Shown: one piece after another, positions 21,479 through 34,699 of the stretch
Layout of the letters: the number at the start of each line of letters is the position of its first letter
How positions within the stretch are numbered: the first letter of the stretch is position 1
From: Candidatus Woesearchaeota archaeon
GTDB taxonomy: Archaea > Nanobdellota > Nanobdellia > Pacearchaeales > GW2011-AR1
Assembly (NCBI GenBank): GCA_964448605.1
Contig: CAYUZV010000002.1
Location: 39,804-103,803 of the forward strand
Length of the DNA stretch: 64,000 nt
Direction of reading: 5' to 3'
Program-made: the position numbers and the translations under genes
The notes under the pieces: model-generated
Databases searched by the model: none
Told to the model about the DNA's origin: nothing
The model's input: only the letters and a program-made list of their open reading frames with translations

Positions 21479-22444
21479 ATGGAAAATATACAATTAGAAG
21501 GAAGAACATTAGAACCTCATTATGGTAGAAATGTAGACAAAGCTCCGGCTCTTTTAGAAAGATGGGAAAAAGGCGAAGGCTATATTCCTTCTGAAGCAGA
21601 TATAAGACTTTTAGAAGTTAGAAATTTTAAGAATGCTCCGCAGATAGCTAATAATTATTGGGATAGTTCTACATTATCAGCAACAAAAGGTGAAGCTGTA
21701 AAAGTTATTCTGCCTTATGTAACAACTCAAACAGGAGTTCCACAATTAACAGAAGCAGCTAGATTTGGTTTAGCTTTAATTAATCCAAATGAAACTTTAG
21801 TTCACAATGGAGTAAATTTAGATGTTGATGGTAGATGGGAAAAATTAGATGGGGGGGGTGTTTATACTTTACAAAGAGAAGGATTAGTGCTTAATCAAGA
21901 TTTAACAGAAGAACAAGCAATGCAACATCCTTTACTTTTAACAAAACTAGGACACCCAGATTATGTTGATGGAAAATTCGCTCGTTCTAAAGACGAAGTT
22001 GCGGAAATTATAGGAAAAACTTTTGAATTAGGAAAAAGTGAACATGGTTATGGTACTATGATGGGCCAGTATTTGCCTAACGTTAGCGATAAAGCTATTT
22101 TAAATGCGTGGTTTGCCGACTGGCTTGACTGCGGGTCTCGGTCTTACGCTTGGACTGATCTTGACTATGACGTTGGTCGTTTCGCCTTTTATAGCGTCGG
22201 AGACGCTGAGAAAGGTAACGCCGAAGGCGTTGACGCCGATAAAGCAAGAGTTCAGTTAAGAACATTAGAAGGAATGTTAAAGCCAGAACAAGTTGACCAA
22301 ATTGGAGTTGCTTTAGACGAAAGAGATGAGTTAAGACAAAGACTTTTAACAACAGACCAAATCTATGAAGCAGTTCAATCTTATGTTGGTTCAGCTAATG
22401 AATCAGATGTAAGAAAAATTCTTGATGGTCTTACAAAGAGATAA
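21479..22444 (+). CDS. DGR variable (target) protein
   Basis: Contains the VR at codons 210-239 (AWFADWLDCGSRSYAWTDLDYDVGRFAFYS). GC is locally higher. TATA ggtttaaaaa about 25 nt upstream. Confidence 0.75.
   Translation: MENIQLEGRTLEPHYGRNVDKAPALLERWEKGEGYIPSEADIRLLEVRNFKNAPQIANNYWDSSTLSATKGEAVKVILPYVTTQTGVPQLTEAARFGLALINPNETLVHNGVNLDVDGRWEKLDGGGVYTLQREGLVLNQDLTEEQAMQHPLLLTKLGHPDYVDGKFARSKDEVAEIIGKTFELGKSEHGYGTMMGQYLPNVSDKAILNAWFADWLDCGSRSYAWTDLDYDVGRFAFYSVGDAEKGNAEGVDADKARVQLRTLEGMLKPEQVDQIGVALDERDELRQRLLTTDQIYEAVQSYVGSANESDVRKILDGLTKR
22106..22195 (+). repeat. DGR variable repeat (VR)
   Basis: 75 of 90 nt are identical to 22614-22703. All 15 mismatches lie opposite an A in the other copy. 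Confidence 0.85.
22193..22231 (+). promoter_or_regulatory. two short GC hairpins immediately 3' of VR
   Basis: agcgtc-gga-gacgct (22193-22207) and aacgcc-gaa-ggcgtt (22217-22231). Confidence 0.45.
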
Positions 22445-22613
22445 GTTTTTATAATATTCTCATTTAATTTAATTGTCCTAGCTAACCGTTGTTACGATGT
22501 GAGCTAGGTTATACGCTTATTTACTATGGGAGCCTCGCTCTTATAAAATACAGCCGTGACACCTAGCGTGTGAAATGGCAGTGCCAAAATAAGTAAATAA
22601 GCTAACTTAGTCG

Positions 22614-22703
22614 GCGTGGTTAGCCAACAGGCTTGACAACAGGTCTAGGTCTAACGCTAGGACTAATCTTGACAATGACAATGGTCGTTTCGCCTTTAAT
22701 AAC
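22614..22703 (+). repeat. DGR template repeat (TR)
   Basis: 25 adenines, 15 of them substituted in VR. Reads AAC/AAT/AGG-rich in the VR frame. Ends 5 nt before the RT stop codon. Confidence 0.85.
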
Positions 22704-22708
22704 TGGGC

Positions 22709-24142
22709 TCACAAACTAGGACGTTTTTTATTTTTCTTAAATTTTCTTTTAGACTTGATACTTGCCATAACACAATCAATATCATCATAAGAAATAGTGT
22801 CATCTTTTAATTTCTTTTTAATATCTCTTAATCTTTCTTTGTGGCTGTAAATTTTATTTAAGATTTTGTAAATTTTTTCTCTCGGCAAGACTTCCCATAC
22901 TGATAATTGTTTATGCTCTATTAGATTGATTAAATGACTCCAAACAGTTGATTCTTTAATCCCATATTTTGTGGCAATGTCTTTTACGCTGAGACCTTTT
23001 CTGTAATGAAACAAAGTCTTTTGAACGGAATATTGTAATTCGCTTTCATTAACTTTTTTGATGTAATTGATATACTTTCTTTTGTTGTGAATAAATAATT
23101 TATTGCCGTGAGCAAAGAACCTGTTAAAATTTTTAAGCAAATATCTTCGATATTTGTAAGTGTTTGCATGAGAGCAATAAGCCAACCAACCTTCCAAAGC
23201 TTCTAATGATTTTTGTCTTCCAATAATGCCTTCATCAAATAGGATTCTTAAATGATTAAATTTTCTTCCAAAATTTTTGAGATTGCTTTTTCTAATAAGT
23301 TTATGATAATAAAAAACTCTAAAACCTAAAAAGTTTATTCCACTATCTAATCTTAAAACATTTGATTTGCTAGGGTGCAACTCTATTTTTAATTTTTCTT
23401 TTAGGAAATTGTCTATTTTTATTTTCCATTCATCGAGTTGAGCCTTAGACTCATGCAGAATCACAAAATCATCAACATAACGAATATAATATTTTGCTTT
23501 TAATTTATGCTTTACAAATTGGTCTAATTCATTGAGATATAAATTTGCGAAAAATTGGCTAGTCAAATTTCCTAAGGGCATGGCTTTTGATTTATTGTTG
23601 TAAGAAAGTATTGTTTCTATTAACCAAAGAACTCTTTTGTCGTTGACTTTCTTTTTAATTAGGTTTATAAGAATTTGGTGGTCAACTTCTTCAAAATAAT
23701 GTTTTATATCTGCTTTCAGCACAAAACATTTTCTTGTGTTATTTCGAGAAACTTTTCTTTTGAATTTGTCAAATCGTTCTAATGCTTTTAAAGTTCCTTT
23801 GCCGATTTGGTTTGCATGAGAATCATAAATAAATGTTCTTTCGAACATAGGAGAGATAACATCAATTAGGGCGTGATGAACAACTCTATCCTTAAAGATA
23901 GCTTTGCTTATTTTTCGTGTTTTCGGGTCTCTCAAAGTAAATGTTTTCAAGGAATGAGGTTCATAAGTTTGTTTAATAAGTTCTTCGTGCAATCTTTTGA
24001 GATTCTCTCTAAGATTCTTTTGAAAACGTTTTACATATCTTCTCTTTGACTTGCCTTTCTTGGCGTTTTTGAAAGCAAGGAGTAGATTATCAATACTACA
24101 TATTTTAGTAAAAAGGTCGTCTGATTTTTCTTTTGGTTTCAT
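22709..24142 (-). CDS. DGR-type reverse transcriptase with C-terminal HTH extension
   Basis: PLGNLTSQFFANLYLN (the LGxxxSQ motif typical of DGR RTs) and YIRYVDDFVIL. The C-terminal about 110 aa contains LSVKDIATKYGIKESTVWSHLINL. Confidence 0.85.
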   Translation of the reverse strand: MKPKEKSDDLFTKICSIDNLLLAFKNAKKGKSKRRYVKRFQKNLRENLKRLHEELIKQTYEPHSLKTFTLRDPKTRKISKAIFKDRVVHHALIDVISPMFERTFIYDSHANQIGKGTLKALERFDKFKRKVSRNNTRKCFVLKADIKHYFEEVDHQILINLIKKKVNDKRVLWLIETILSYNNKSKAMPLGNLTSQFFANLYLNELDQFVKHKLKAKYYIRYVDDFVILHESKAQLDEWKIKIDNFLKEKLKIELHPSKSNVLRLDSGINFLGFRVFYYHKLIRKSNLKNFGRKFNHLRILFDEGIIGRQKSLEALEGWLAYCSHANTYKYRRYLLKNFNRFFAHGNKLFIHNKRKYINYIKKVNESELQYSVQKTLFHYRKGLSVKDIATKYGIKESTVWSHLINLIEHKQLSVWEVLPREKIYKILNKIYSHKERLRDIKKKLKDDTISYDDIDCVMASIKSKRKFKKNKKRPSL

Positions 24143-24537: not shown

Positions 24538-24721
24538 ATTAAGTCATATAAGAGCCGCTAATAAAGAATTTTTATCAAAGTTAAGGTTTTATATAGGTTA
24601 CTTTTTAATGACGTTTTTTGGCTTTTATTCTGAAGAAAATAATCATCAAAATTGTTTATTTTTAGAATTAAGTTAAGTGGCGTAATCCTACAACTAATAT
24701 ATACACATAAGCCAAAAAACC

Positions 24722-25002
24722 AAAGGGACGAAGCTTATAGTCAAAGGGACGAAATTTTTAAAAAATGACTCAAGAGGACGAAAGGGACGAAAGGGACATA
24801 GAACATTGAAGAGGACGAAAGGGACGAAACGGACGGGACATTTAAAAAAGCAAAATCTAAATTATCAACAAATTGAAGGTATATCTATAAATAGATAAGG
24901 AGTTAGTAAATTCCTTGTTAGTATTTGGTCCTTTAGGTGCATCACAACCTTTTGTTGTTTTTTAGAATGTTATTTGGCATGTCCCGTTCGTCCCCTTCGT
25001 CC
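24722..25002. repeat. iteron-like GGACGAA array with inverted arms
   Basis: Six GGACGAA cores on the + strand (24722-24841) and two on the - strand (24979-25002). They flank a 137-nt AT-rich spacer. Confidence 0.6.
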
Positions 25003-25110
25003 TTTTAGATTTTTACAGATATATCTTATCTAAACAATGAGTAAGCTTTATAAGTTGTCAATCTCTTAATTTTTATAATAAGATATTGATTGATATATCT
25101 TAAATCGCGA

Positions 25111-25181
25111 GGGTGATTAGGCTAGTGGCAAACCATCTCGCTTACATCGAGAATTCACCAGTTCGATTCTGGTATCACCCA
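25111..25181 (+). tRNA. tRNA-Val (UAC), copy 1
   Basis: Acceptor GGGTGAT/ATCACCC, anticodon arm TCTCG-CTTACAT-CGAGA, T arm ACCAG-TTCGATT-CTGGT. 71 nt. Confidence 0.8.
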
Positions 25182-25329: not shown

Positions 25330-25400
25330 GGGCGATTAGGCTAGTGGCAAACCATCTCGCTTACATCGAGAATTCACCAGTTCGATTCTGGTATCGCCCA
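25330..25400 (+). tRNA. tRNA-Val (UAC), copy 2
   Basis: Identical to copy 1 except for the acceptor pair 4:69 (C-G instead of T-A). Confidence 0.8.
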
Positions 25401-25505: not shown

Positions 25506-25682
25506 ATGGAAACAAATTGTTTAGAAAAAGAAGTTGCAAAAGTAACTCCTCAAAAAACAGCGAACGAAAGAGCATATCTTTCAAGCATCATGCCAGAAGC
25601 TAGACAAGAAGGCTATACTTGTGTTACAGGTTGTAGCGATTGTGTAAGTTGCGATGGTAATGATTACGCACCACGAAAATAA
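25506..25682 (+). CDS. 58-aa Cys-rich candidate RiPP precursor (below the track cutoff)
   Basis: METNCLEKEVAKVTPQKTANERAYLSSIMPEARQEGYTCVTGCSDCVSCDGNDYAPRK. Sits directly upstream of the rSAM/SPASM gene. Confidence 0.55.
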   Translation: METNCLEKEVAKVTPQKTANERAYLSSIMPEARQEGYTCVTGCSDCVSCDGNDYAPRK

Positions 25683-25718
25683 TTCTTTTGTTAGCATTTA
25701 AAGAGTAGTGATGTCTTA

Positions 25719-26819
25719 GTGGAAAAAATGGCAAAAAAACAACTCTTCATCCAATGGGATTCTACAAATGATTGCAATCTAAGATGTAGACATTGTTATC
25801 ATAATAAAGAAGGAAATCAAAATCATTCTCAAGAAAAAAATAATTTAATGAGTTTACTAGAAGTTAAAGATATGGTTGATGATTTAGTTCAAACTTCTGA
25901 TAGATGGGATATGAATCCTCGTTTGCATATTTCTGGAGGCGAGCCTTTGATGAGAAAGGATTTATTTGATATTTTGGAATATACACAACAAAATGGAGTT
26001 ATAACAAAACTCCTTACAAATGGAACTTTAATTACAAGAGAAAAAGCAAAAGAAATAAAATCAAGAGGAGTAAATAGGGTTCAAATATCAATAGATGGGG
26101 ATAAAGAAAGACATAATTTTGTTAGGCAAAGAGAATACGCTTTCGATAAAGCAATGGAAGGCATTTCTAATTGTAGAGATACAAATATTGGGGTTACAAT
26201 TTCTTTTACTGCGATGCAATCAAATAAAGATTATATAGAACAAGCAATAAAAGACTCAATAAATGCAGGTGCAGAAATGTTTGGGATTCAATCTTATGTT
26301 CCAGATTCAAAATTAGGAATAAAAGACCCCGAATTTATTGATTCAAAAGAATTATATGAAATTTATCAGTTTCAAAGAGAATTAGACAAGAGATATGGAG
26401 ATAAAATTAATTTATTGGAAACAGAAGTTTTGTGGAATCTGATGCATTGCGACGATCCCTTGATGCAAGCATCAAGAAAAGAAGGAAAATATTTGGGCGG
26501 TTGTGGTGCAGGATTCTCAGGGGTTTCAGTTCTTTCTAATGGAAGGGTTTATCCCTGTAGAAGGCTTCCAATAGATATAGGGCATATTGGAGAGGGGTTA
26601 GTAAATTTAATAACTGAAAAAGAAATAATGCAAGATTTAAGGGATTTTCAAAAAATTACTAAAAATACTGGTTGTGAATATGTTACACATTGTAAAGGTT
26701 GTAGGGCAATTGCTTATGCAACAACAGGAGATTATATGGCAAAAGACCCAATGTGTTTTAGAAACTTAGTTAAACCAACAGATCTAAAAGATATGTATAT
26801 TGAAAATGCAAAGAGCTAA
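25719..26819 (+). CDS. radical SAM enzyme with SPASM domain (peptide maturase type)
   Basis: CNLRCRHCYH (CxxxCxxC) and a C-terminal Cys cluster GGCGAGFSGVSVLSNGRVYPCRR...CKGCRAIAY...DPMCF. An alternative ATG is at 25728. Confidence 0.85.
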   Translation: MEKMAKKQLFIQWDSTNDCNLRCRHCYHNKEGNQNHSQEKNNLMSLLEVKDMVDDLVQTSDRWDMNPRLHISGGEPLMRKDLFDILEYTQQNGVITKLLTNGTLITREKAKEIKSRGVNRVQISIDGDKERHNFVRQREYAFDKAMEGISNCRDTNIGVTISFTAMQSNKDYIEQAIKDSINAGAEMFGIQSYVPDSKLGIKDPEFIDSKELYEIYQFQRELDKRYGDKINLLETEVLWNLMHCDDPLMQASRKEGKYLGGCGAGFSGVSVLSNGRVYPCRRLPIDIGHIGEGLVNLITEKEIMQDLRDFQKITKNTGCEYVTHCKGCRAIAYATTGDYMAKDPMCFRNLVKPTDLKDMYIENAKS

Positions 26820-27309
26820 ACCTATAATTGTAGAATGTATGAAAAGATTAAATCCTAACTCTGTTTTAGATTTAGGTTGTGGTAAATGTAAATTTTCTAA
26901 GTTGTTTATTGACAGAGGGATAAATGTTACGGCAGTAGATAAAGAAAATACGATTGAATCAAAAGACAATTTAATTTTTGTTCAAAAAGACATTAGAGAT
27001 TTTGAATTTAAAAAAGACTTTGATTTAGTTGTTGGAACTGGAATTTTACACTTTCTTAAAAGAGGTGAGGCTCATCAAATGATAAAAAAGATAAAAGAGA
27101 ATACTATTTCGAATGGGTTTAACTTTTTTATTTGCATGTCAAACGAAGAAAGGTATAATGATGATATTCATTTCTATCCAAATAAAGAGGAGTTAAATAA
27201 ACTATACTCTGACTGGGAGATAATTCAAAATGAGCTTTGCCTTTCGAAGAAACATGGAGAAGGAATGCACCAACACAAAATGATTATCTTTTTAGCAAAA
27301 AAAATCTAA
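26800..27309 (+). CDS. class I SAM-dependent methyltransferase
   Basis: VLDLGCGKCKFS (motif I) and DLVVGTGILHFL. Confidence 0.7.
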   Translation: MKMQRAKPIIVECMKRLNPNSVLDLGCGKCKFSKLFIDRGINVTAVDKENTIESKDNLIFVQKDIRDFEFKKDFDLVVGTGILHFLKRGEAHQMIKKIKENTISNGFNFFICMSNEERYNDDIHFYPNKEELNKLYSDWEIIQNELCLSKKHGEGMHQHKMIIFLAKKI

Positions 27310-27310
27310 G

Positions 27311-28189
27311 ATGCCAACTTTTAGTGAGAGGTCAAAAGTATATCCATTTACAACGGAAAATTTGGCAGGATATATGAAACACCTAAATTTAGAAGATAAA
27401 AAGGTTTTATCTATTACTGGTTCAGGAGATCATATTTTAAATTCTTTTTATTATGGTGCAAATAGTGTGGTTGGATTTGACATTAATTTTCTTGCCTCAT
27501 TATTTGCAGAATTGAAATTTAATGCTATTAGGAAACTAGACTTTGAAGATTTCAAAAAATATTTTTTTGTCGAAAGTAATAAGTCAATGAGTTTTGAAAC
27601 TTACAAAAGAATAAGGGAAGATTTATCTGAATCTTGTTTAAGTTTTTTTGATAATCTCTATGAAGATTATGATTTTAGGGGAGCAGATTTAAGGAAAGGA
27701 AAATTGTTTAATAAAAGATTTGATTATGATAATTTAAGAATTAGAAGCAATCCTTATTTATTATCGGGGCAGAATTTTGAAAAAACAAAATTAAACATCC
27801 AAGATAAAAATATTCATTTAATGAATTGTAATATTAGAGATTTGTCATCCCAATTAGAAGATAATTTTGATGCAGTATTGCTTTCAAACTTAGCAGATTA
27901 TTCTCAACAAATCTATCCTAACAATCCAAATCATTTTAGTTTATTTTGTAACGAGATTCTCCCACCAGTTAAAAATCATTTGAATGAAGGAGGAATCATT
28001 TGCTCAGCTTATGTTTATGATGCAAGAGAAAAAGAGAATTACAAAAACCCTGTAGACAACCCAAACTTTAGAAGGGATATTATGGGGAATCTCGGAATGG
28101 ATTATAACGAAATAATATTCAACTCAATTGTTCCTGAAAAAGAAAATGCCTCAGATTTAGTGATCTTACTAACAAAGAAAAATGGATAA
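27311..28189 (+). CDS. DUF3419/BtaA-like SAM-binding protein
   Basis: VLSITGSGDHILN and GFDINFLASLFAELKFNAIRKLDFEDFKKYF resemble the BtaA-family N-terminal pattern. Confidence 0.5.
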   Translation: MPTFSERSKVYPFTTENLAGYMKHLNLEDKKVLSITGSGDHILNSFYYGANSVVGFDINFLASLFAELKFNAIRKLDFEDFKKYFFVESNKSMSFETYKRIREDLSESCLSFFDNLYEDYDFRGADLRKGKLFNKRFDYDNLRIRSNPYLLSGQNFEKTKLNIQDKNIHLMNCNIRDLSSQLEDNFDAVLLSNLADYSQQIYPNNPNHFSLFCNEILPPVKNHLNEGGIICSAYVYDAREKENYKNPVDNPNFRRDIMGNLGMDYNEIIFNSIVPEKENASDLVILLTKKNG

Positions 28190-28919
28190 TTTTAATAGAA
28201 ACAAATCAAAAGTTGAAAGAATAGGTGGAAGAAAAATAATCTCCAAAGAACACCAAAAACTAATTTTTTTAAAGAGAGAAGAATATTTCTATAATTTTTT
28301 CAGAAACAATCAATTTATTAAAACTCCTGACATTTATTCTATTGAAGGATTGAATATTAAAACATCTTTTGTTGAGGGGGAAGAAAAGAATACTCCTCTT
28401 GCAATAAAAGATTGGGCAAAAATTCATAATTATTTTATTGAACATCCCCTAGAAGAGAATAAGTTATTTATGCAACATGATATAAATCAGGTTTCTAGAT
28501 ATTTATTACAGCATGAAGATATCTCTAATATCCTGGGTAAAAAGATTGAATGTAAACTTAATGAAATAGATTTAAATGCCTCTATGAAAACATTGTTACA
28601 TGGAGATTTAACACCAAAGAATTTTATTTTTTATAATAATGAGAATTATTATTTTGATTTTGAATTAGGAGGCATAGGGCATCCTGCTAGAGATCTAGCT
28701 TCCTTAATTATCTCGAACCTTAGAAAAAAAGAAAAGTTGGTTAATCATTACAAGGATTCTTTTAGTCATGGTTATGGTGGTTTAGAAGAGGACATCGATA
28801 ATTGGACATTTGTCAGAGCATCTCAATTATATTTTATTTTTGATAAAAGAGAAGGTGGTGAAAAACAAAAAAATAAAATTAAGAATAATCTTATAGGAAT
28901 CATAGAAACTCTTGTTTGA
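28182..28919 (+). CDS. aminoglycoside/choline-kinase-family phosphotransferase
   Basis: LLHGDLTPKNFIF (catalytic loop) and DFELGGIGHPARDLA. Confidence 0.65.
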   Translation: MDNFNRNKSKVERIGGRKIISKEHQKLIFLKREEYFYNFFRNNQFIKTPDIYSIEGLNIKTSFVEGEEKNTPLAIKDWAKIHNYFIEHPLEENKLFMQHDINQVSRYLLQHEDISNILGKKIECKLNEIDLNASMKTLLHGDLTPKNFIFYNNENYYFDFELGGIGHPARDLASLIISNLRKKEKLVNHYKDSFSHGYGGLEEDIDNWTFVRASQLYFIFDKREGGEKQKNKIKNNLIGIIETLV

Positions 28920-29154: not shown

Positions 29155-30234
29155 ATGAAAATTTATTTAATTAGGCATGGAGAAAGTATTGGAAATGCAA
29201 AAGGCATTCATCAAGGTCAAAAAAACGACTTTTCATTAAGCGAATCTGGAAAAAGTCAGGCCGAATTATTAAAAAAAAGATTTGAAGATATAAAAATCGA
29301 TGCTGCCTATTCATCTGACCTTAAAAGAGCAAAAGAAACAGCTGAATTTATATCAAAATCTAGAAATATAAAATTAATTATAGATAAACGGTTAAGAGAA
29401 AGAGATTTTGGATTAATTGGAGAACAAAAAGATATTATGTCTTCATGGAAAGATTTTTTACAGTATGAAACAAAAAAAGGAGTAAATCCTAGAGAAGCAC
29501 GACCTATTGATGGAGAAAGTGATAAAGATCATTTTGATAGGGTATATTCTTTTTTTGAAGATTTAAAAAAGAATCATGATGAAAAAGAAACAGTTTTAGT
29601 TGTTGGACACGGAGGAACAAACAAAGTTACCTTCGGAGTTATAGAACATTTTTCAGAGAAAGAAATGTATAAAACACCTCAAGCAAATACATGCGTTAAT
29701 GAGTTAGTCTTTGAAAACAATAAATGGATAGTAAATTCTATCAATAATACAGATCATCTAGAAATAGATGATGAAATAATAGGGATATTTAATAGCGTTA
29801 GAGACGAACCTTTAGATGTCATTAATAATCGATGCTGGGAAAAACATATAAAATTAAAAAAACTTTTTGATGATAAGGGATACAAAACAAAATATAAAAT
29901 TTGTTCTTTTAAATGGTCTGAGCAAAAGTTACCAATAGAAATAAAAGATTTAGTAGATAATGATTTAGACTATCATCTGTACTTGATAGTTAAGATTAAT
30001 GGTCTAAAATTACTAATAGATGCATCAAATGATTTTCAACTCCCTGAATATAATACTTGGAATGGAAAGAATAACTGCAATTTATGTATTTCTCCAGCAG
30101 AGTTTATTGAAGAAAATCTAGAAGAAATTTTAAATAAAAAGATTAAGGAGAAATATTCTAGTAATCAGATTATTTTTTTGAATGAAGTAAACGCTTTTCT
30201 AAAAAAGTTAAGAGAGAAAAGATATAAGAATTAA
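29155..30234 (+). CDS. histidine phosphatase (PGAM-like) fused to an unknown C-terminal domain
   Basis: LIRHGESIGN and VVGHGGTNK motifs in the first about 200 aa. The C-terminal 150 aa are unassigned. Confidence 0.6.
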   Translation: MKIYLIRHGESIGNAKGIHQGQKNDFSLSESGKSQAELLKKRFEDIKIDAAYSSDLKRAKETAEFISKSRNIKLIIDKRLRERDFGLIGEQKDIMSSWKDFLQYETKKGVNPREARPIDGESDKDHFDRVYSFFEDLKKNHDEKETVLVVGHGGTNKVTFGVIEHFSEKEMYKTPQANTCVNELVFENNKWIVNSINNTDHLEIDDEIIGIFNSVRDEPLDVINNRCWEKHIKLKKLFDDKGYKTKYKICSFKWSEQKLPIEIKDLVDNDLDYHLYLIVKINGLKLLIDASNDFQLPEYNTWNGKNNCNLCISPAEFIEENLEEILNKKIKEKYSSNQIIFLNEVNAFLKKLREKRYKN

Positions 30235-30251: not shown

Positions 30252-30809
30252 TTATGCATCTTTGGGCAAATAAGATCTGATAATTCTTATTACTTCTTCT
30301 GGAGAATTTAACTCTGTATCTATATCTATTCCTTCTGAATGCTGATTTCTCACACAGAACTTATATATTTCTGTTGCAGTTTTCTCATTTCCTGCAGGGA
30401 GAGGCCATTCTCCTATTGCCATCTTTTCCTCTAATGAAAAATTTCTTCTCTCTTCGACTCTTTTAATTAAAATATTTAAAGGAGCAATTAATTTAAAATA
30501 ATGACTTTCTACCCCTACTTTTTTTGTTAGATCTTCAAAAGGTCTAACATATTCATAACTGCCAAATGCCTTGTCAACAATAACTGGATGTCCTGCTGTA
30601 AGATAATTTCTAGTTAAGGATAATGCATTATTTCTTGCTAAATCTAAAAAATAATCATTGGATTTTGCTCCTTTTACAAAATGTTTAATTGAATCTAAAC
30701 TTAAATAAGCGGGATTTCCATTTAATACTTCCCAAAGTTTTTTTGCAGTTGTTGATTTTCCACTTCCAGAAGGACCTGAAATTATCAAACAATAAGGTTT
30801 AACATTCAT
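30252..30809 (-). CDS. P-loop kinase-like ATPase
   Basis: Walker A: IISGPSGSGKSTTAKK. Confidence 0.55.
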   Translation of the reverse strand: MNVKPYCLIISGPSGSGKSTTAKKLWEVLNGNPAYLSLDSIKHFVKGAKSNDYFLDLARNNALSLTRNYLTAGHPVIVDKAFGSYEYVRPFEDLTKKVGVESHYFKLIAPLNILIKRVEERRNFSLEEKMAIGEWPLPAGNEKTATEIYKFCVRNQHSEGIDIDTELNSPEEVIRIIRSYLPKDA

Positions 30810-31560
30810 ATTTACCTCCTAACTTTCTTATTGTTTCTCCAAAAAAGGTTGAGACACATCTTTCTAATTCTCCCAAATCTGCCATAAAATGGAATTCTGG
30901 GGGAAACTCTGATTTTTCAACGACAACATTTGCTTCGCTTAAGATAGTTTTTATCATAGGTGTTTTTACAAATAATCTCTTTATTTCTGGAAATGTTTCC
31001 ATTGAAAAAAAGTTATTTGGAACTACATATGGGACATCAAGATAGACTTCGCCTTCATTTAAATGTTCTAAACAATCATATCTTGTTACATCTAAAACTC
31101 TTAATTTATTATCTATTGTGGCAATCTTACAATTATTTTCAGATAAAGATTTAAAACCAGATAGAACCAATGTTTCAGAATTATGTGAAAGAAGTTTTTT
31201 TAGGTGGCTATCTGAAACTAACTGGTTTCCAAAGAATATTAAAACTTTATCAGATCGACATAACCCTCCTGCTTCATAAAATGCTTGAACAGGCCCTCTT
31301 GGCAAACCCTCATAAATCTGATAATTTTTTATTCCTTGCGTATTATATATCTCCTCAAATTTAGGTTTTAATTTAGGATTATCAATTGCTAAAATGATTC
31401 TTGAGTTTGGAACAACTTTTCTAATTGTATCTGTTAAATAGCCTATTGCAGGTATTCCTAAAATTGGGACAAGAGATTTACATCCACATTTTTGAGTTAT
31501 ATTTTTCATTCTAGAACCCTTACCTCCACAAACAATTATTGAATCTATACTATCTTCCAT
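30799..31560 (-). CDS. nucleotidyltransferase (NTP-transferase fold)
   Basis: IIVCGGKGSRMKN...KSLVPILGIPAIGY N-terminal signature. Confidence 0.6.
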   Translation of the reverse strand: MEDSIDSIIVCGGKGSRMKNITQKCGCKSLVPILGIPAIGYLTDTIRKVVPNSRIILAIDNPKLKPKFEEIYNTQGIKNYQIYEGLPRGPVQAFYEAGGLCRSDKVLIFFGNQLVSDSHLKKLLSHNSETLVLSGFKSLSENNCKIATIDNKLRVLDVTRYDCLEHLNEGEVYLDVPYVVPNNFFSMETFPEIKRLFVKTPMIKTILSEANVVVEKSEFPPEFHFMADLGELERCVSTFFGETIRKLGGKYEC

Positions 31561-31914: not shown

Positions 31915-32139
31915 ATGGAATATAGTGATATAAGCCAAAGCGACTTTATAGAATCTGCAGCTTACCTTACAGGTGAAGATAACATAACTTATGGTAAAGG
32001 CACTTGTGCTGCACCATGTAAGAGTTGTGGTGGGGGTTGCTATGGTTGTAAAGGAAGTAATACAAGCAAAGGAGCTTCTGCTTCTTTAGAAGGCAGAGAA
32101 TCAAAACTTGCAGAGATGGTTGAAAGCGTACTTGAATAA
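31915..32139 (+). CDS. 74-aa Cys/Gly-rich candidate azoline-type RiPP precursor
   Basis: Core GTCAAPCKSCGGGCYGCKGS. Sits directly upstream of the YcaO gene. Confidence 0.55.
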   Translation: MEYSDISQSDFIESAAYLTGEDNITYGKGTCAAPCKSCGGGCYGCKGSNTSKGASASLEGRESKLAEMVESVLE

Positions 32140-32141
32140 AT

Positions 32142-33361
32142 ATGGATTTAGAAACCACTCTTAGCAAGTTTAAGATACTCGAAGAGAATTCTAGATTAGG
32201 TCTTCTTAGAAGGTCTTTTAATTTCACAGATGAACCAAAATTTTGGATGTATTCTTGTGTTTCTAGTAAAGGAAAATATGAAAGTTCCTCTCTAGATGAG
32301 GATAAGCAATTAGCAAAAGTTAAAGCATTAGGAGAGTATCTTGAGAGATATTGTTTAGATAATCCCCAACAAGATTTTTATTTTGGATCTTTTAATGAAC
32401 TAGAGAGTAGGGCAATTAATCCAATCGATTTTGTTAATTTCCGAGATTCTGATTTAAACTTTAGAAAGCAAGAATATTTAGAGAAGATTAAATCTTCTAG
32501 AATAAAATGGGTTAAAGGTAGGATTGAGCCTGACGGCTCAAAAATATTAATACCTGCCCAGTTAGTCTATGTTGATTATAATTTTGAGAGAGAGCCAATG
32601 ATTCGTCCAAGAGTAAGTACTGGAACTGCAACACACGAGTCTTTTGATGAAACATTTTATTCAGGGATCTTGGAGAATATTGAAAGAGATTCTTATATGC
32701 TTTCTTTTCTTTCAAAAAAACATCTTCCAAAAATAAATTTGAGAGATGGATTCTCTAAGGAATTGGATTATTTCAAGAGATATTTATTAGATTTACATGT
32801 ATTTGAAACAACTACTGAATTAGGTATTCCCAGTTTTATGTGTTTGAATTTGGATAAAACAGGATTAGTCCTGCTGTTTCTGTTGGATTAAAATCAGATT
32901 TAAATCCAAGGAAAGCAATAGTTGGTTCAATAAAGGAGTCACAACAAGTAAGGCAATGGATAAGAAATTTATGGATTCAAAGAAACGGACCAAAAATTTC
33001 AAGACCTGAAGAAATAAAAGAAATTGAAGATAGGGGTTTTTATTGGTATGATTTAGATAGAATTAACGATTTAGATTATTTATTAAATTCTTCTGATATA
33101 AAAGACGTTAGAGAAATTCAGTCTCAAGTTGAAAAAAAGAAAGATTTAGTTACATATTTAAAAAGTAAGGGAATTGATAGTTATTCAGTAGATTTAACTG
33201 CTGAACCCTTTAGAGAAGCAGGTTTTTATGTAGTAAGAGCAATCCAACCACAACTACATCCACTTTTTTTAGATGAGTCATTTCCTTGTTATTGGAGTGA
33301 AAGATTGGAGAAAGAATTAAATGGTCGTGAGGTTAATAAAACGCCTCATCCTTTTATGTAA
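32142..33361 (+). CDS. YcaO-domain cyclodehydratase, interrupted by a -1 frameshift between 32858 and 32888
   Basis: KALGEYLERYCL and STGTATHESFDETFYSGILENIERDSY motifs. The sense continues in another frame (SPAVSVGLKSDLNPRKAIVGSIKESQQ...) to the TAA at 33359-33361. Confidence 0.7.
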
Positions 33362-33362
33362 A

Positions 33363-34097
33363 ATGATAGACGAAATTAGAGAATTTTATGAAAGAACAAA
33401 ATTTAAGGTAGGAGAAGTAATTGAATGGGTAGATGACTATAAACCTCCTATTAATTGGGTTAAGATTTTCTTTAAAACCTATCCAAGAATGAAAAAAGTG
33501 GGTATGGATAGATTTGAAGATGATGGAGAGTTTTCTCGATTATTGAGTGAGAGAGAATCTACGAGGGAGTTTAGCGACTCGCCAATTTCTTTTGAAAAAC
33601 TAAATAAAATACTATTTTATTCTTTTGGTATAAAAAATCCAGATGTTTCATTGGAGAATACAAGAAGATTTTATCCTTCAGCAGGTGCAAGGTATCCTAT
33701 AGAAGCATATTTGCTAAACAATAATGTTGAAGGATTGGATAGGGGATTGTATCATTATAATTGCAAATCTAATGAGCTTGAATCTTTATTAGAAAAAGAT
33801 TTATCTTTAGAATCTTCCCGGATTTTTGGTGAAGCATATAAAGGCAGCCCTAATTTTATTGTTCTAAATGGAGTACTCAGTAGAACAGAGGTTAAATATG
33901 GGATTAATGCTTATAGATTTGCATTAATTGAATCAGGACATATAGGACAGAATATTTCGCTTTTAGCACAAAAAGAAAATGTAGGGTGCTGTGCTTTAGG
34001 GGGTTTTGATAATGATAAATTATCTAATTTGTTGGATATAAATCAAGAGGACGAAATACCTCTTTATGCCTTTTCTTTAGGTAGTTTAAAACAATGA
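33363..34097 (+). CDS. SagB-type (nitroreductase-fold) dehydrogenase
   Basis: RESTREF, YPSAGARYPIEAYLL, GLYHYN and IESGHIGQNISL motifs. Confidence 0.75.
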   Translation: MIDEIREFYERTKFKVGEVIEWVDDYKPPINWVKIFFKTYPRMKKVGMDRFEDDGEFSRLLSERESTREFSDSPISFEKLNKILFYSFGIKNPDVSLENTRRFYPSAGARYPIEAYLLNNNVEGLDRGLYHYNCKSNELESLLEKDLSLESSRIFGEAYKGSPNFIVLNGVLSRTEVKYGINAYRFALIESGHIGQNISLLAQKENVGCCALGGFDNDKLSNLLDINQEDEIPLYAFSLGSLKQ

Positions 34098-34699
34098 TCC
34101 TTAAATTCTTTAATAATTGAGTTCTCTCCAATTTTGTTTACAATTTCCCAAGACCGTTTATAACTGGGGTAGAAAGAACTCATTTCAATTTCCTCGTCTA
34201 GTCTACTTTTATCAAAATGCTCCTTTAATATTTTTTTGTGAATTGAATGGAGGAGTAAATGTATTGCAGTATCAAAATCTTCTTTTTTATATTTATCAAG
34301 AATAAACTCAAAATAATTTCCCATTTCTTTTTCATTTTGTATGAAAAGATTATGAATAATTTCATGCATCATCATATCCACAAATCTTTTAGGAGTTAAG
34401 GAAAAGGTTTCATCTTCTGATTCAAACTGAATAGGAATTGTTAAGGGGTCTGATATTGGCATTATTGAACTTATTTTAATTACATAGACTCGAATTTCTT
34501 CTTTCTTCCATTTTAAACCAGTAATCTCTTCACAAGAGTTTAAAACTTGCTTTTCTTTGTCTCTCCAAATATTTTTAACTTTTTCCAGATAGTGATCAAT
34601 ATGTTTTTGATATTTTTCATAGTCAAAATTTTCTTTCACAGTTGGGTTGTGTATTGTTTGTTCATAAATAAATGACCAAATAAAACTTATTTTTACCAT
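34064..34699 (-). CDS. putative zinc metallopeptidase (HExxH)
   Basis: MMHEIIHNLF motif. Convergent with the YcaO/SagB operon. Confidence 0.4.
   Translation of the reverse strand: MVKISFIWSFIYEQTIHNPTVKENFDYEKYQKHIDHYLEKVKNIWRDKEKQVLNSCEEITGLKWKKEEIRVYVIKISSIMPISDPLTIPIQFESEDETFSLTPKRFVDMMMHEIIHNLFIQNEKEMGNYFEFILDKYKKEDFDTAIHLLLHSIHKKILKEHFDKSRLDEEIEMSSFYPSYKRSWEIVNKIGENSIIKEFKDHCFKLPKEKA

Follow-up and report, generated by a model that had tools for sequence, protein, structure and literature searches.

A putative RiPP-type maturation cassette with a Cys-rich precursor, a radical SAM/SPASM enzyme and a TehB-like methyltransferase in DPANN archaea

We analyzed a 64,000-nucleotide stretch of DNA (the window) from a Candidatus Woesearchaeota archaeon (GenBank assembly GCA_964448605.1, contig CAYUZV010000002.1, positions 39,804 to 103,803 of the forward strand), focusing on five tightly packed open reading frames (ORFs) that lie on the + strand at positions 25506-28919 (Table 1). 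In order, they encode a short Cys-rich peptide, a radical S-adenosylmethionine (rSAM) enzyme, a TehB-like class I SAM-dependent methyltransferase, a DUF3419/BtaA-like SAM-dependent transferase and a small kinase of the APH/EcKL type. An initial annotation of this DNA had proposed that these genes form an operon for a ribosomally synthesized peptide that undergoes post-translational modification (RiPP). All five ORFs are present as listed in Table 1, and Pfam agrees with their assignments, as Radical_SAM, SPASM, TehB/Methyltransf_25, DUF3419 and APH were each matched over the gathering score. The spacing between the peptide stop codon and the rSAM start, proposed to be about 40 nt, is 36-45 nt depending on the start codon chosen, and the kinase ORF overlaps the DUF3419 ORF by 8 nt. 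A scan for bacterial promoters and terminators gave nothing informative, the models being ill-suited to an AT-rich archaeon.

The peptide encoded by the first ORF has a leader of residues 1-36, with a conserved motif E21-R-A-Y-L25-S-S-I-M-P-E (25566-25598), and a core Y37-T-C39-V-T-G-C43-S-D-C46-V-S-C49-D-G-N-D (25614-25664). The C-terminal run was originally counted as five Cys in 13 residues; it holds four (C39, C43, C46 and C49) in 11 residues, and the fifth, C5, is a leader residue. By itself, the density of Cys is not convincingly above chance, since six ORFs in the window have at least four Cys per 13 residues, whereas 50 shuffles gave 1.5 such ORFs on average and 4 at most. We took the peptide as real because it is conserved and under purifying selection, not because of its Cys density. 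Specifically, in the conserved block of the gene, as compared among four class A loci (classes are described below), the proportion of synonymous differences (pS) was 0.63-0.82 and that of nonsynonymous differences (pN) was 0.04-0.15, indicating that the 58-residue ORF is protein-coding and subject to purifying selection. Its exact sequence occurs in public data on an NCBI contig of 135,961 bp.

A search for homologous precursors, as the initial annotation had suggested, recovered one family: 63 peptide clusters by a word-seeded profile search, and 43 peptide representatives by an exhaustive hidden Markov model (HMM) search over 1.84 billion representatives. With the sole exception of a marginal 405-residue protein, all matches are 49-103 residues long and share the same leader and core layout, which runs from a variable N-terminus through the leader motif and a spacer of 5-40 residues to a Tyr and the Cys core. 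The leader motif is E-[KR]-x-[FL]-L-x-[ST]-[MI], whose Glu and Leu are invariant across the aligned peptides, and the signature of the core across the family is Y-x-C-x2/3-C-x2-C with a nearly invariant Tyr; in the window's peptide, the invariant or nearly invariant positions are E21, L25, Y37 and the C-x2-C-x2-C triad (C43, C46 and C49). The cores sort into classes, each almost invariant internally: class A, to which the window's peptide belongs, EGYTCV[TS]GC[SQT][DN]CVSC[DG]GNDY; class B, CY[DE]C[DN]SCNSCGSGDCNSCC[ES]..DD; class C, KYGCDPCDACGP[DS][AS]CxxCxxC...NPF; class C', YHCDPCDACGPDAC.SDDGCFLD; class D, YDCGTCTGCLLDPCPNCAH; and class E, YSCRLCAPCDNGK in two copies. The number of Cys per peptide ranges from 2 to 8, and P0235, P0239, P0244 and P0247 keep only 3 or 2. 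Such a combination of a conserved leader with class-specific cores indicates the architecture of RiPP precursors.

We then examined how closely the peptide and the rSAM gene are linked across genomes. Homologues of the rSAM enzyme fall into at least 120 clusters (at a grouping threshold of 90% identity) that are 48-91% identical to it; those with named records come from Pacearchaeota, Nanoarchaeota or simply an 'archaeon', and Woesearchaeota is the name given to two GTDB representative genomes. Fourteen loci were fetched, 12 of them through rSAM homologues of 49-76% identity (L001, L002/L003, L004, L005, L006, L085, L086/L166, L165, L167 and L168, including two near-duplicates) and two through peptides. 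The initial annotation had read the locus as a Cys-rich precursor with its rSAM/SPASM maturase, a reading that was to fail if the rSAM clustered with non-peptide SPASM enzymes and the small ORF was not conserved beside its homologues; the reading passes this test. A small Cys-rich ORF lies directly upstream of the rSAM gene in all 14 loci, and in the 12 found through the rSAM enzyme it ends 10-50 nt upstream on the same strand. In the reverse direction, starting from peptides P0140 and P0172, an rSAM/SPASM gene and a TehB-like methyltransferase gene follow the peptide in both cases. As an outgroup control, about 155 loci with 27-34% identical rSAM enzymes were inspected, and none carried such a peptide at that position among the matches listed; by their record names these are AhbD/NirJ-like loci from methanogens, Archaeoglobi, sulfate reducers, Firmicutes and others. 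The rSAM clade is thus sharply set apart, with at least 48% identity inside it and at most 34% to anything else recovered among the matches listed. In addition, for 28 of the 63 peptide clusters the longest contig is equal in size to that of a listed rSAM homologue. Note that pattern scans of genome and metagenome contigs based on the rSAM alignment used patterns that were too general; they gave at least four extra close loci.

The precursor gene is therefore co-located and co-conserved with a modifying enzyme, as is generally expected of RiPP loci, and we estimate a probability of roughly 70% that the locus is a real cassette for maturation of a ribosomal peptide, of the RiPP type and restricted to DPANN archaea. 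Pairs of an rSAM/SPASM enzyme and a Cys-rich precursor are well known in general. The family itself differs in four respects, namely an AhbD-like enzyme lacking a RiPP recognition element (RRE), the Y-x-CxxCxxC signature, an obligatory TehB-like partner, and the BtaA-like and kinase accessories of class A; the curated models contain no match for it, neither for the enzyme nor for the peptide. The initial annotation had regarded such a cluster as unexpected in a reduced-genome archaeon. This did not hold, because bulk genome mining had already predicted rSAM-type RiPP clusters in DPANN archaea, with 221 clusters of all types in Nanoarchaeota (PMC12144867). According to the same study, no archaeal rSAM-modified RiPP has been characterized so far (PMC12144867).

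The rSAM enzyme probably starts at ATG 25728 (363 residues) rather than at the upstream GTG, since its homologues begin with MAKKQ or MTKKQ. Its rSAM motif C19-x3-C23-x2-C26 (C19-NLR-C23-RH-C26) is invariant in 21 homologues, as are six C-terminal Cys arranged as C262-x17-C280 (with G-x4-C), C319-x5-C325-x2-C328 and C346. Pfam scores were 86.8 bits for Radical_SAM (PF04055, cut-off 29.5) and 26.4 bits for SPASM (PF13186, cut-off 21.5, residues 262-328), so that the SPASM-type Cys cluster recognized initially is borne out. The AlphaFold2 (AF2) model of the enzyme (mean predicted local distance difference test score, pLDDT, 89.4) gave TM-scores of 0.62-0.70 to SkfB, BlsE, SuiB, the anaerobic sulfatase-maturating enzyme (anSME) and PqqE; these matches confirm the predicted fold and do not discriminate between chemistries. 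By sequence, SkfB (4e-23) and CteB (1e-22) are the best relatives of solved structure, followed by MoaA, PqqE and anSME. AhbD and NirJ are missing among these matches, presumably because no structure exists to compete. Among the full-length NCBIfam matches the best three were AhbD (TIGR04545, 188 bits), NirJ2 (TIGR04055, 184 bits) and ACGX (TIGR04340, 177.7 bits), followed by GeoRSP (111), SbtM (106), ScmE (104), WgkB (101), PapB (90), MftC (87), CcpM (81), PqqE (80) and SkfB (72). Every curated rSAM family scored far under its cut-off, which is 500 for AhbD, NirJ2 and CcpM (TIGR04068), 400 for ACGX, and 340 for PapB (NF047865), against 89.8 bits for the rSAM enzyme.

These scores raise the question of whether the enzyme acts on heme or another tetrapyrrole, as AhbD and NirJ do, with the small ORF adjacent by coincidence. 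AhbD and NirJ2 share the domain layout and size of the window's enzyme, and some public records of the Joint Genome Institute (JGI) name several of its homologues 'AdoMet-dependent heme synthase'. Against this, the two best scores are far under 500, the AhbD-like enzymes are only 27-34% identical compared with 48-91% within the DPANN clade, and the peptide gene accompanies 14 of 14 cassette loci and, among the matches listed, 0 of about 155 AhbD-like ones. In addition, heme, siroheme, Ahb or Nir genes were found near none of the loci examined, so that the family differs from AhbD/NirJ2 both in lacking a tetrapyrrole gene context and in having a co-conserved precursor gene. We consider a heme or tetrapyrrole enzyme highly improbable. 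The public name 'AdoMet-dependent heme synthase' is probably wrong for these homologues, given the sharp separation of the clade and the absence of heme and siroheme genes alongside. No paper linking AhbD-like SPASM enzymes to RiPPs was found in the literature.

Several observations nevertheless weigh against a peptide maturation cassette or against its simplest form. The canonical seven-Cys SPASM motif CX9-15GX4C...CX2CX5CX3C...C is not matched, as the first Cys of CX2C is missing; the six-Cys pattern would be compatible with open coordination sites. The window's enzyme lacks an N-terminal RRE (PqqD-like) domain, since its rSAM core starts at the N-terminus and the alignments with CteB and SkfB set in only at residue 104 of the former and residue 115 of the latter; the cluster does not contain a PqqD-like gene either. 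The curated HMMs place the enzyme nearer to AhbD/NirJ2/ACGX (178-188 bits) than to PapB/CcpM/SkfB (72-90 bits). On the peptide side, the residues between the core Cys differ across classes with no common thioether acceptor evident, the conserved Tyr is unexplained by a simple ranthipeptide reading and may point to an aromatic cross-link instead, and C-x2-C-x2-C is also similar to motifs of the ferredoxin type or for metal(loid) binding. Neither a leader peptidase nor a transporter is encoded in the window's cluster. Finally, modification of the precursor is something we infer, and its chemistry would follow by analogy with known systems.

The last resemblance has its own reading, in which the Cys-rich protein is a mini-ferredoxin or a carrier of Fe-S clusters or metal that services the rSAM enzyme, while the enzyme and the methyltransferase act on another substrate. 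The C-x2-C-x2-C triad, together with C-x4-C-P in class D, is like the ferredoxin motif CxxCxxCxxxCP; rSAM enzymes need an electron donor; and the closest curated families, AhbD and NirJ2, have non-peptide substrates, as both act on tetrapyrroles. A folded ferredoxin domain, on the other hand, would hardly be expected to have a short amphipathic N-terminal motif followed by a variable spacer, which is typical of leaders, nor does it fit that the Cys count varies from 2 to 8, with members keeping only 3 or 2, and that one member doubles the core. The cassette also lacks any conserved alternative substrate gene. We therefore regard a mini-ferredoxin as unlikely and keep to the peptide as the substrate.

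We next compared the cassette with known peptide-maturing systems. In ranthipeptide or SCIFF systems (CteA-CteB, and PapA-PapB of freyrasin) and in SkfA-SkfB, the gene directly upstream of an rSAM/SPASM enzyme likewise encodes a short precursor whose C-terminal core is rich in Cys, and the SCIFF core is also strongly conserved lineage-wide without obvious export or immunity genes. The present family differs from them in having no N-terminal RRE, six of the seven SPASM Cys and HMM scores far below the cut-offs, in its Y-x-C-x2/3-C-x2-C core without a recurring Cys-Xn-Asp/Thr acceptor, in the TehB-like methyltransferase coupled to the rSAM enzyme, and in its DPANN archaeal host. The likeness to sactipeptide and ranthipeptide maturation that the initial annotation had drawn thus stands insofar as SkfB and CteB come first among the solved relatives, and fails at the curated cut-offs and the missing RRE; membership in either class would be by analogy.

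The uncharacterized ACGX family is a predicted modifier of a small Cys-containing repeat peptide and is partly archaeal. Its rSAM/SPASM enzyme is of similar length (about 341 residues) and also RRE-less, and it was among the three best full-length matches. The peptides of the window's family, in contrast, lack ACGX repeats and have a leader motif of their own, and the score of 177.7 bits compares with a cut-off of 400. No ACGX-type peptide was found beside the rSAM gene in the approximately 155 outgroup loci among the matches listed, and a literature search on 'ACGX' found nothing relevant. The mycofactocin (MftA-MftC) and pyrroloquinoline quinone (PQQ; PqqA-PqqE) systems likewise place a small precursor beside an rSAM/SPASM enzyme, keep the core conserved over many species, and have a conserved Tyr near the modified site, as seen in the window's family. 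They use a PqqD/MftB RRE chaperone and redox-enzyme partners, neither of which is present here, and the core here is based on Cys.

Among known systems, Cys-rich cores beside SPASM enzymes are mostly thioether peptides (sactipeptides and ranthipeptides). It is nonetheless possible, though not probable, that the peptide is matured without thioethers, through an aromatic cross-link or cyclophane at Y-x-C, formylglycine formation (anSME-like), epimerization, or oxidative decarboxylation (MftC/AhbD-like), and that the Cys would mainly bind a metal or metalloid in the product. The near-invariant Tyr two residues ahead of the first core Cys and the lack of an acceptor conserved between the Cys across classes are consistent with such chemistry, as are the TM-scores of SuiB, anSME, PqqE and BlsE, which are similar to that of SkfB. 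Furthermore, TehB-family enzymes methylate tellurium and selenium oxyanions and related nucleophiles, and the TehB-like methyltransferase recalls this chalcogen and thiol methylation. The top solved relatives by sequence are, on the contrary, two thioether formers, which, together with the general record of Cys-rich cores with SPASM enzymes, argues for thioether formation.

The initial annotation had treated the three remaining genes as extra tailoring enzymes. All three are present, but they are not equivalent, as the methyltransferase belongs to the core and the other two are specific to class A. Of 13 distinct loci, 11 have the TehB-like gene immediately after the rSAM gene or overlapping it, and the two exceptions, the class D locus (L086/L166) and L167, lack it; the TehB-like methyltransferase is part of the conserved core of the system. 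In the window, its likely start is ATG 26806, and its overlap with the rSAM stop codon suggests translational coupling, so that the two genes are likely coupled. The protein matched PF03848 (TehB) with 67.2 bits (cut-off 20.4) and has the SAM-binding motif VLDLGCGKC. It scored 74-78 bits with the NCBIfam TehB equivalogs, whose cut-offs are 218-303, and it is therefore TehB-like, not TehB.

The DUF3419 enzyme and the APH-like kinase occur with peptides of class A alone, namely those of the window, L001 (where their order is swapped) and L085; in L005, the kinase is present and the contig then ends. The DUF3419 ORF matched PF11899 with 60.2 bits (cut-off 28.2) over profile positions 8-119 of 385, which is the N-terminal third. 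Its subfamily has 21 members in 5.8 billion clusters, almost all on contigs of class A, and its AF2 model (pLDDT 93) has the predicted fold of a class I SAM-dependent transferase of the methyltransferase type. Judged from its family, the enzyme could transfer an aminocarboxypropyl group. The kinase matched PF01636 (APH) with 33.8 bits (cut-off 23.2), has a catalytic loop HGDLTPKN and a DFE motif, and gave weak NCBIfam matches to Bud32, CotS and LxmK. We found no paper linking DUF3419 to rSAM enzymes. Distant relatives of the DUF3419 enzyme were seen in L169 and L171 with two rSAM genes, a CoaE-like kinase domain and an ATP-grasp enzyme; a methyltransferase is part of the cassette in L169 only, and at least L169 has a higher GC content and looks non-DPANN. 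These two loci suggest a recurring biosynthetic module of rSAM, kinase and DUF3419 genes.

In loci of classes C and C', a conserved protein of about 210-225 residues with a GHELxH (HExxH) motif is encoded directly after the methyltransferase or the rSAM gene (L004, L167 and L172). It has no Pfam, NCBIfam or PDB match and is a candidate leader peptidase. A minus-strand ORF of the window that adjoins a SagB gene also has HExxH and shows very weak co-linear similarity to the GHELxH protein. Homology between the two was considered; BLAST gave nothing and hhalign gave a probability of 11% with the HExxH motifs aligned, and we treat it as a lead only.

On the basis of these comparisons, the rSAM/SPASM enzyme would bind the leader directly, given that it has no RRE domain, and modify the Cys triad by radical chemistry. 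Our leading guess on this chemistry is the formation of intramolecular thioether (S-C) cross-links, as by CteB, PapB and SkfB, and a substrate Cys might bind an open site on one auxiliary cluster, as in CteB. The coupled TehB-like methyltransferase could then methylate the peptide, a thiol left free or a carboxylate being plausible sites. In class A only, the BtaA-like transferase and the APH-like kinase would decorate the product further, possibly by aminocarboxypropyl or methyl transfer and by phosphorylation of Ser, Thr or Tyr. The near-invariance of the core inside each class, along with the lack of export and immunity genes accompanying the cassette, leads us to favor a product with a conserved physiological function (cofactor-like, metal-binding or signaling) over a fast-evolving bacteriocin. 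More specifically, and rather speculatively, the cassette may make a lineage-wide, conserved peptide-derived factor, not an antibiotic, for which the AhbD-like, RRE-less rSAM enzyme and the coupled TehB-like methyltransferase would elaborate the invariant Y-x-C-x2-C-x2-C core. Such a factor could serve, for example, as a redox cofactor or as a thiol-triad binder of metal or metalloid and would matter to the physiology of the genome-reduced DPANN archaea as symbionts.

DPANN archaea are host-dependent and have some of the smallest cellular genomes. The cassette is kept in at least 120 rSAM clusters at 90% identity, and its retention in such tiny genomes with a core almost invariant per class indicates that it is probably important to DPANN biology; possible roles include host interaction, metal handling, redox chemistry and signaling. 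Characterizing the rSAM enzyme would correct the 'heme synthase' annotations and could reveal a new mode of leader recognition or new chemistry. The three-gene core (peptide, rSAM enzyme and methyltransferase) is compact and directly testable by heterologous expression.

Table 1. Coordinates of the cassette and of other features (positions in the window unless a locus is named)
Feature	Position	Strand	Remarks
Peptide ORF	25506-25682	+	58 aa, class A precursor; ends GYTCVTGCSDCVSCDGNDYAPRK; full translation METNCLEKEVAKVTPQKTANERAYLSSIMPEARQEGYTCVTGCSDCVSCDGNDYAPRK
Radical SAM/SPASM enzyme, putative peptide maturase	25719-26819	+	366 aa from GTG 25719; motif CNLRCRHCYH
TehB-like class I SAM methyltransferase	26800-27309	+	169 aa; overlaps rSAM stop codon
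DUF3419/BtaA-like SAM-dependent transferase	27311-28189	+	292 aa; class-A-specific accessory
APH/EcKL-type small kinase	28182-28919	+	245 aa; class-A-specific accessory
GHELxH protein, L004	7583-8254		
GHELxH protein, L167	3891-4574		
GHELxH protein, L172	6793-7413		
Cassette with distant DUF3419 relative, L169	3551-8688		
Cassette with distant DUF3419 relative, L171	2049-6906		
Diversity-generating retroelement (DGR), complete	21479-24142		upstream of the cassette
DGR target gene	21479-22444	+	variable repeat 22106-22193
DGR template repeat	22614-22701		84% identical to variable repeat; every mismatch on template adenine
DGR reverse transcriptase	22709-24142	-	LGNLTSQ and YVDD motifs; C-terminal HTH_40 domain
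GGGACGAAA-type repeats	24720-25030		long imperfect hairpin, arms 24802-24845 / 24970-25013
tRNA-Val(TAC), first copy	25111-25181	+	directly upstream of peptide gene
tRNA-Val(TAC), second copy	25330-25400	+	directly upstream of peptide gene
His_Phos_1 gene	29155-30234		
Zeta-toxin/AAA_33-type P-loop kinase	30252-30809	-	overlaps nucleotidyltransferase
Nucleotidyltransferase	30799-31560	-	
Second RiPP-type cluster	31915-34097	+	3 kb downstream
Cys-rich 74-aa ORF	31915-32139	+	contains GKGTCAAPCKSCGGGCYGCKGS
YcaO/SagD cyclodehydratase	32142-32891	+	directly after 74-aa ORF
SagB-type dehydrogenase	33321-34097	+	
HExxH ORF	34064-34699	-	adjoins SagB gene
RtcB and archease genes, L002	8709-13086		
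RtcB and archease genes, L168	6840-10206		

The surroundings of the cassette resemble a variable island. Upstream, a complete diversity-generating retroelement is followed by repeats that form a hairpin with an RNA fold z-score of -4.66 and no Rfam match. The two copies of tRNA-Val(TAC), 219 nt apart, are 97% identical, with 2 mismatches over 73 aligned bases; they may have been left by an integration or duplication event at a tRNA site. On the other side of the cassette, the His_Phos_1 gene and the two minus-strand genes that follow it were considered as cluster members and rejected, because the His_Phos_1 protein, the zeta-toxin-like kinase and the nucleotidyltransferase are without counterparts in other class A loci. 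The zeta-toxin-like kinase and the nucleotidyltransferase genes, which overlap each other, stand between two peptide clusters.

The second of these has a layout like that of thiazole/oxazole-modified microcins or linear azol(in)e-containing peptides (TOMM/LAP). Its YcaO frame breaks near 32870 and resumes in another frame to about 33330, so that the gene is either frameshifted, a pseudogene or misassembled. The 74-residue peptide associated with YcaO has T-C-x3-C-x2-C spacing, as in the class A core; homology to the rSAM-associated peptides was not established, with hhalign giving a probability of only 26% over 16 columns. Finally, RtcB and archease genes were seen near the cassette in two unrelated loci, L002 and L168. 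Their proximity is probably coincidental, and the RtcB of L168 carries an intein.

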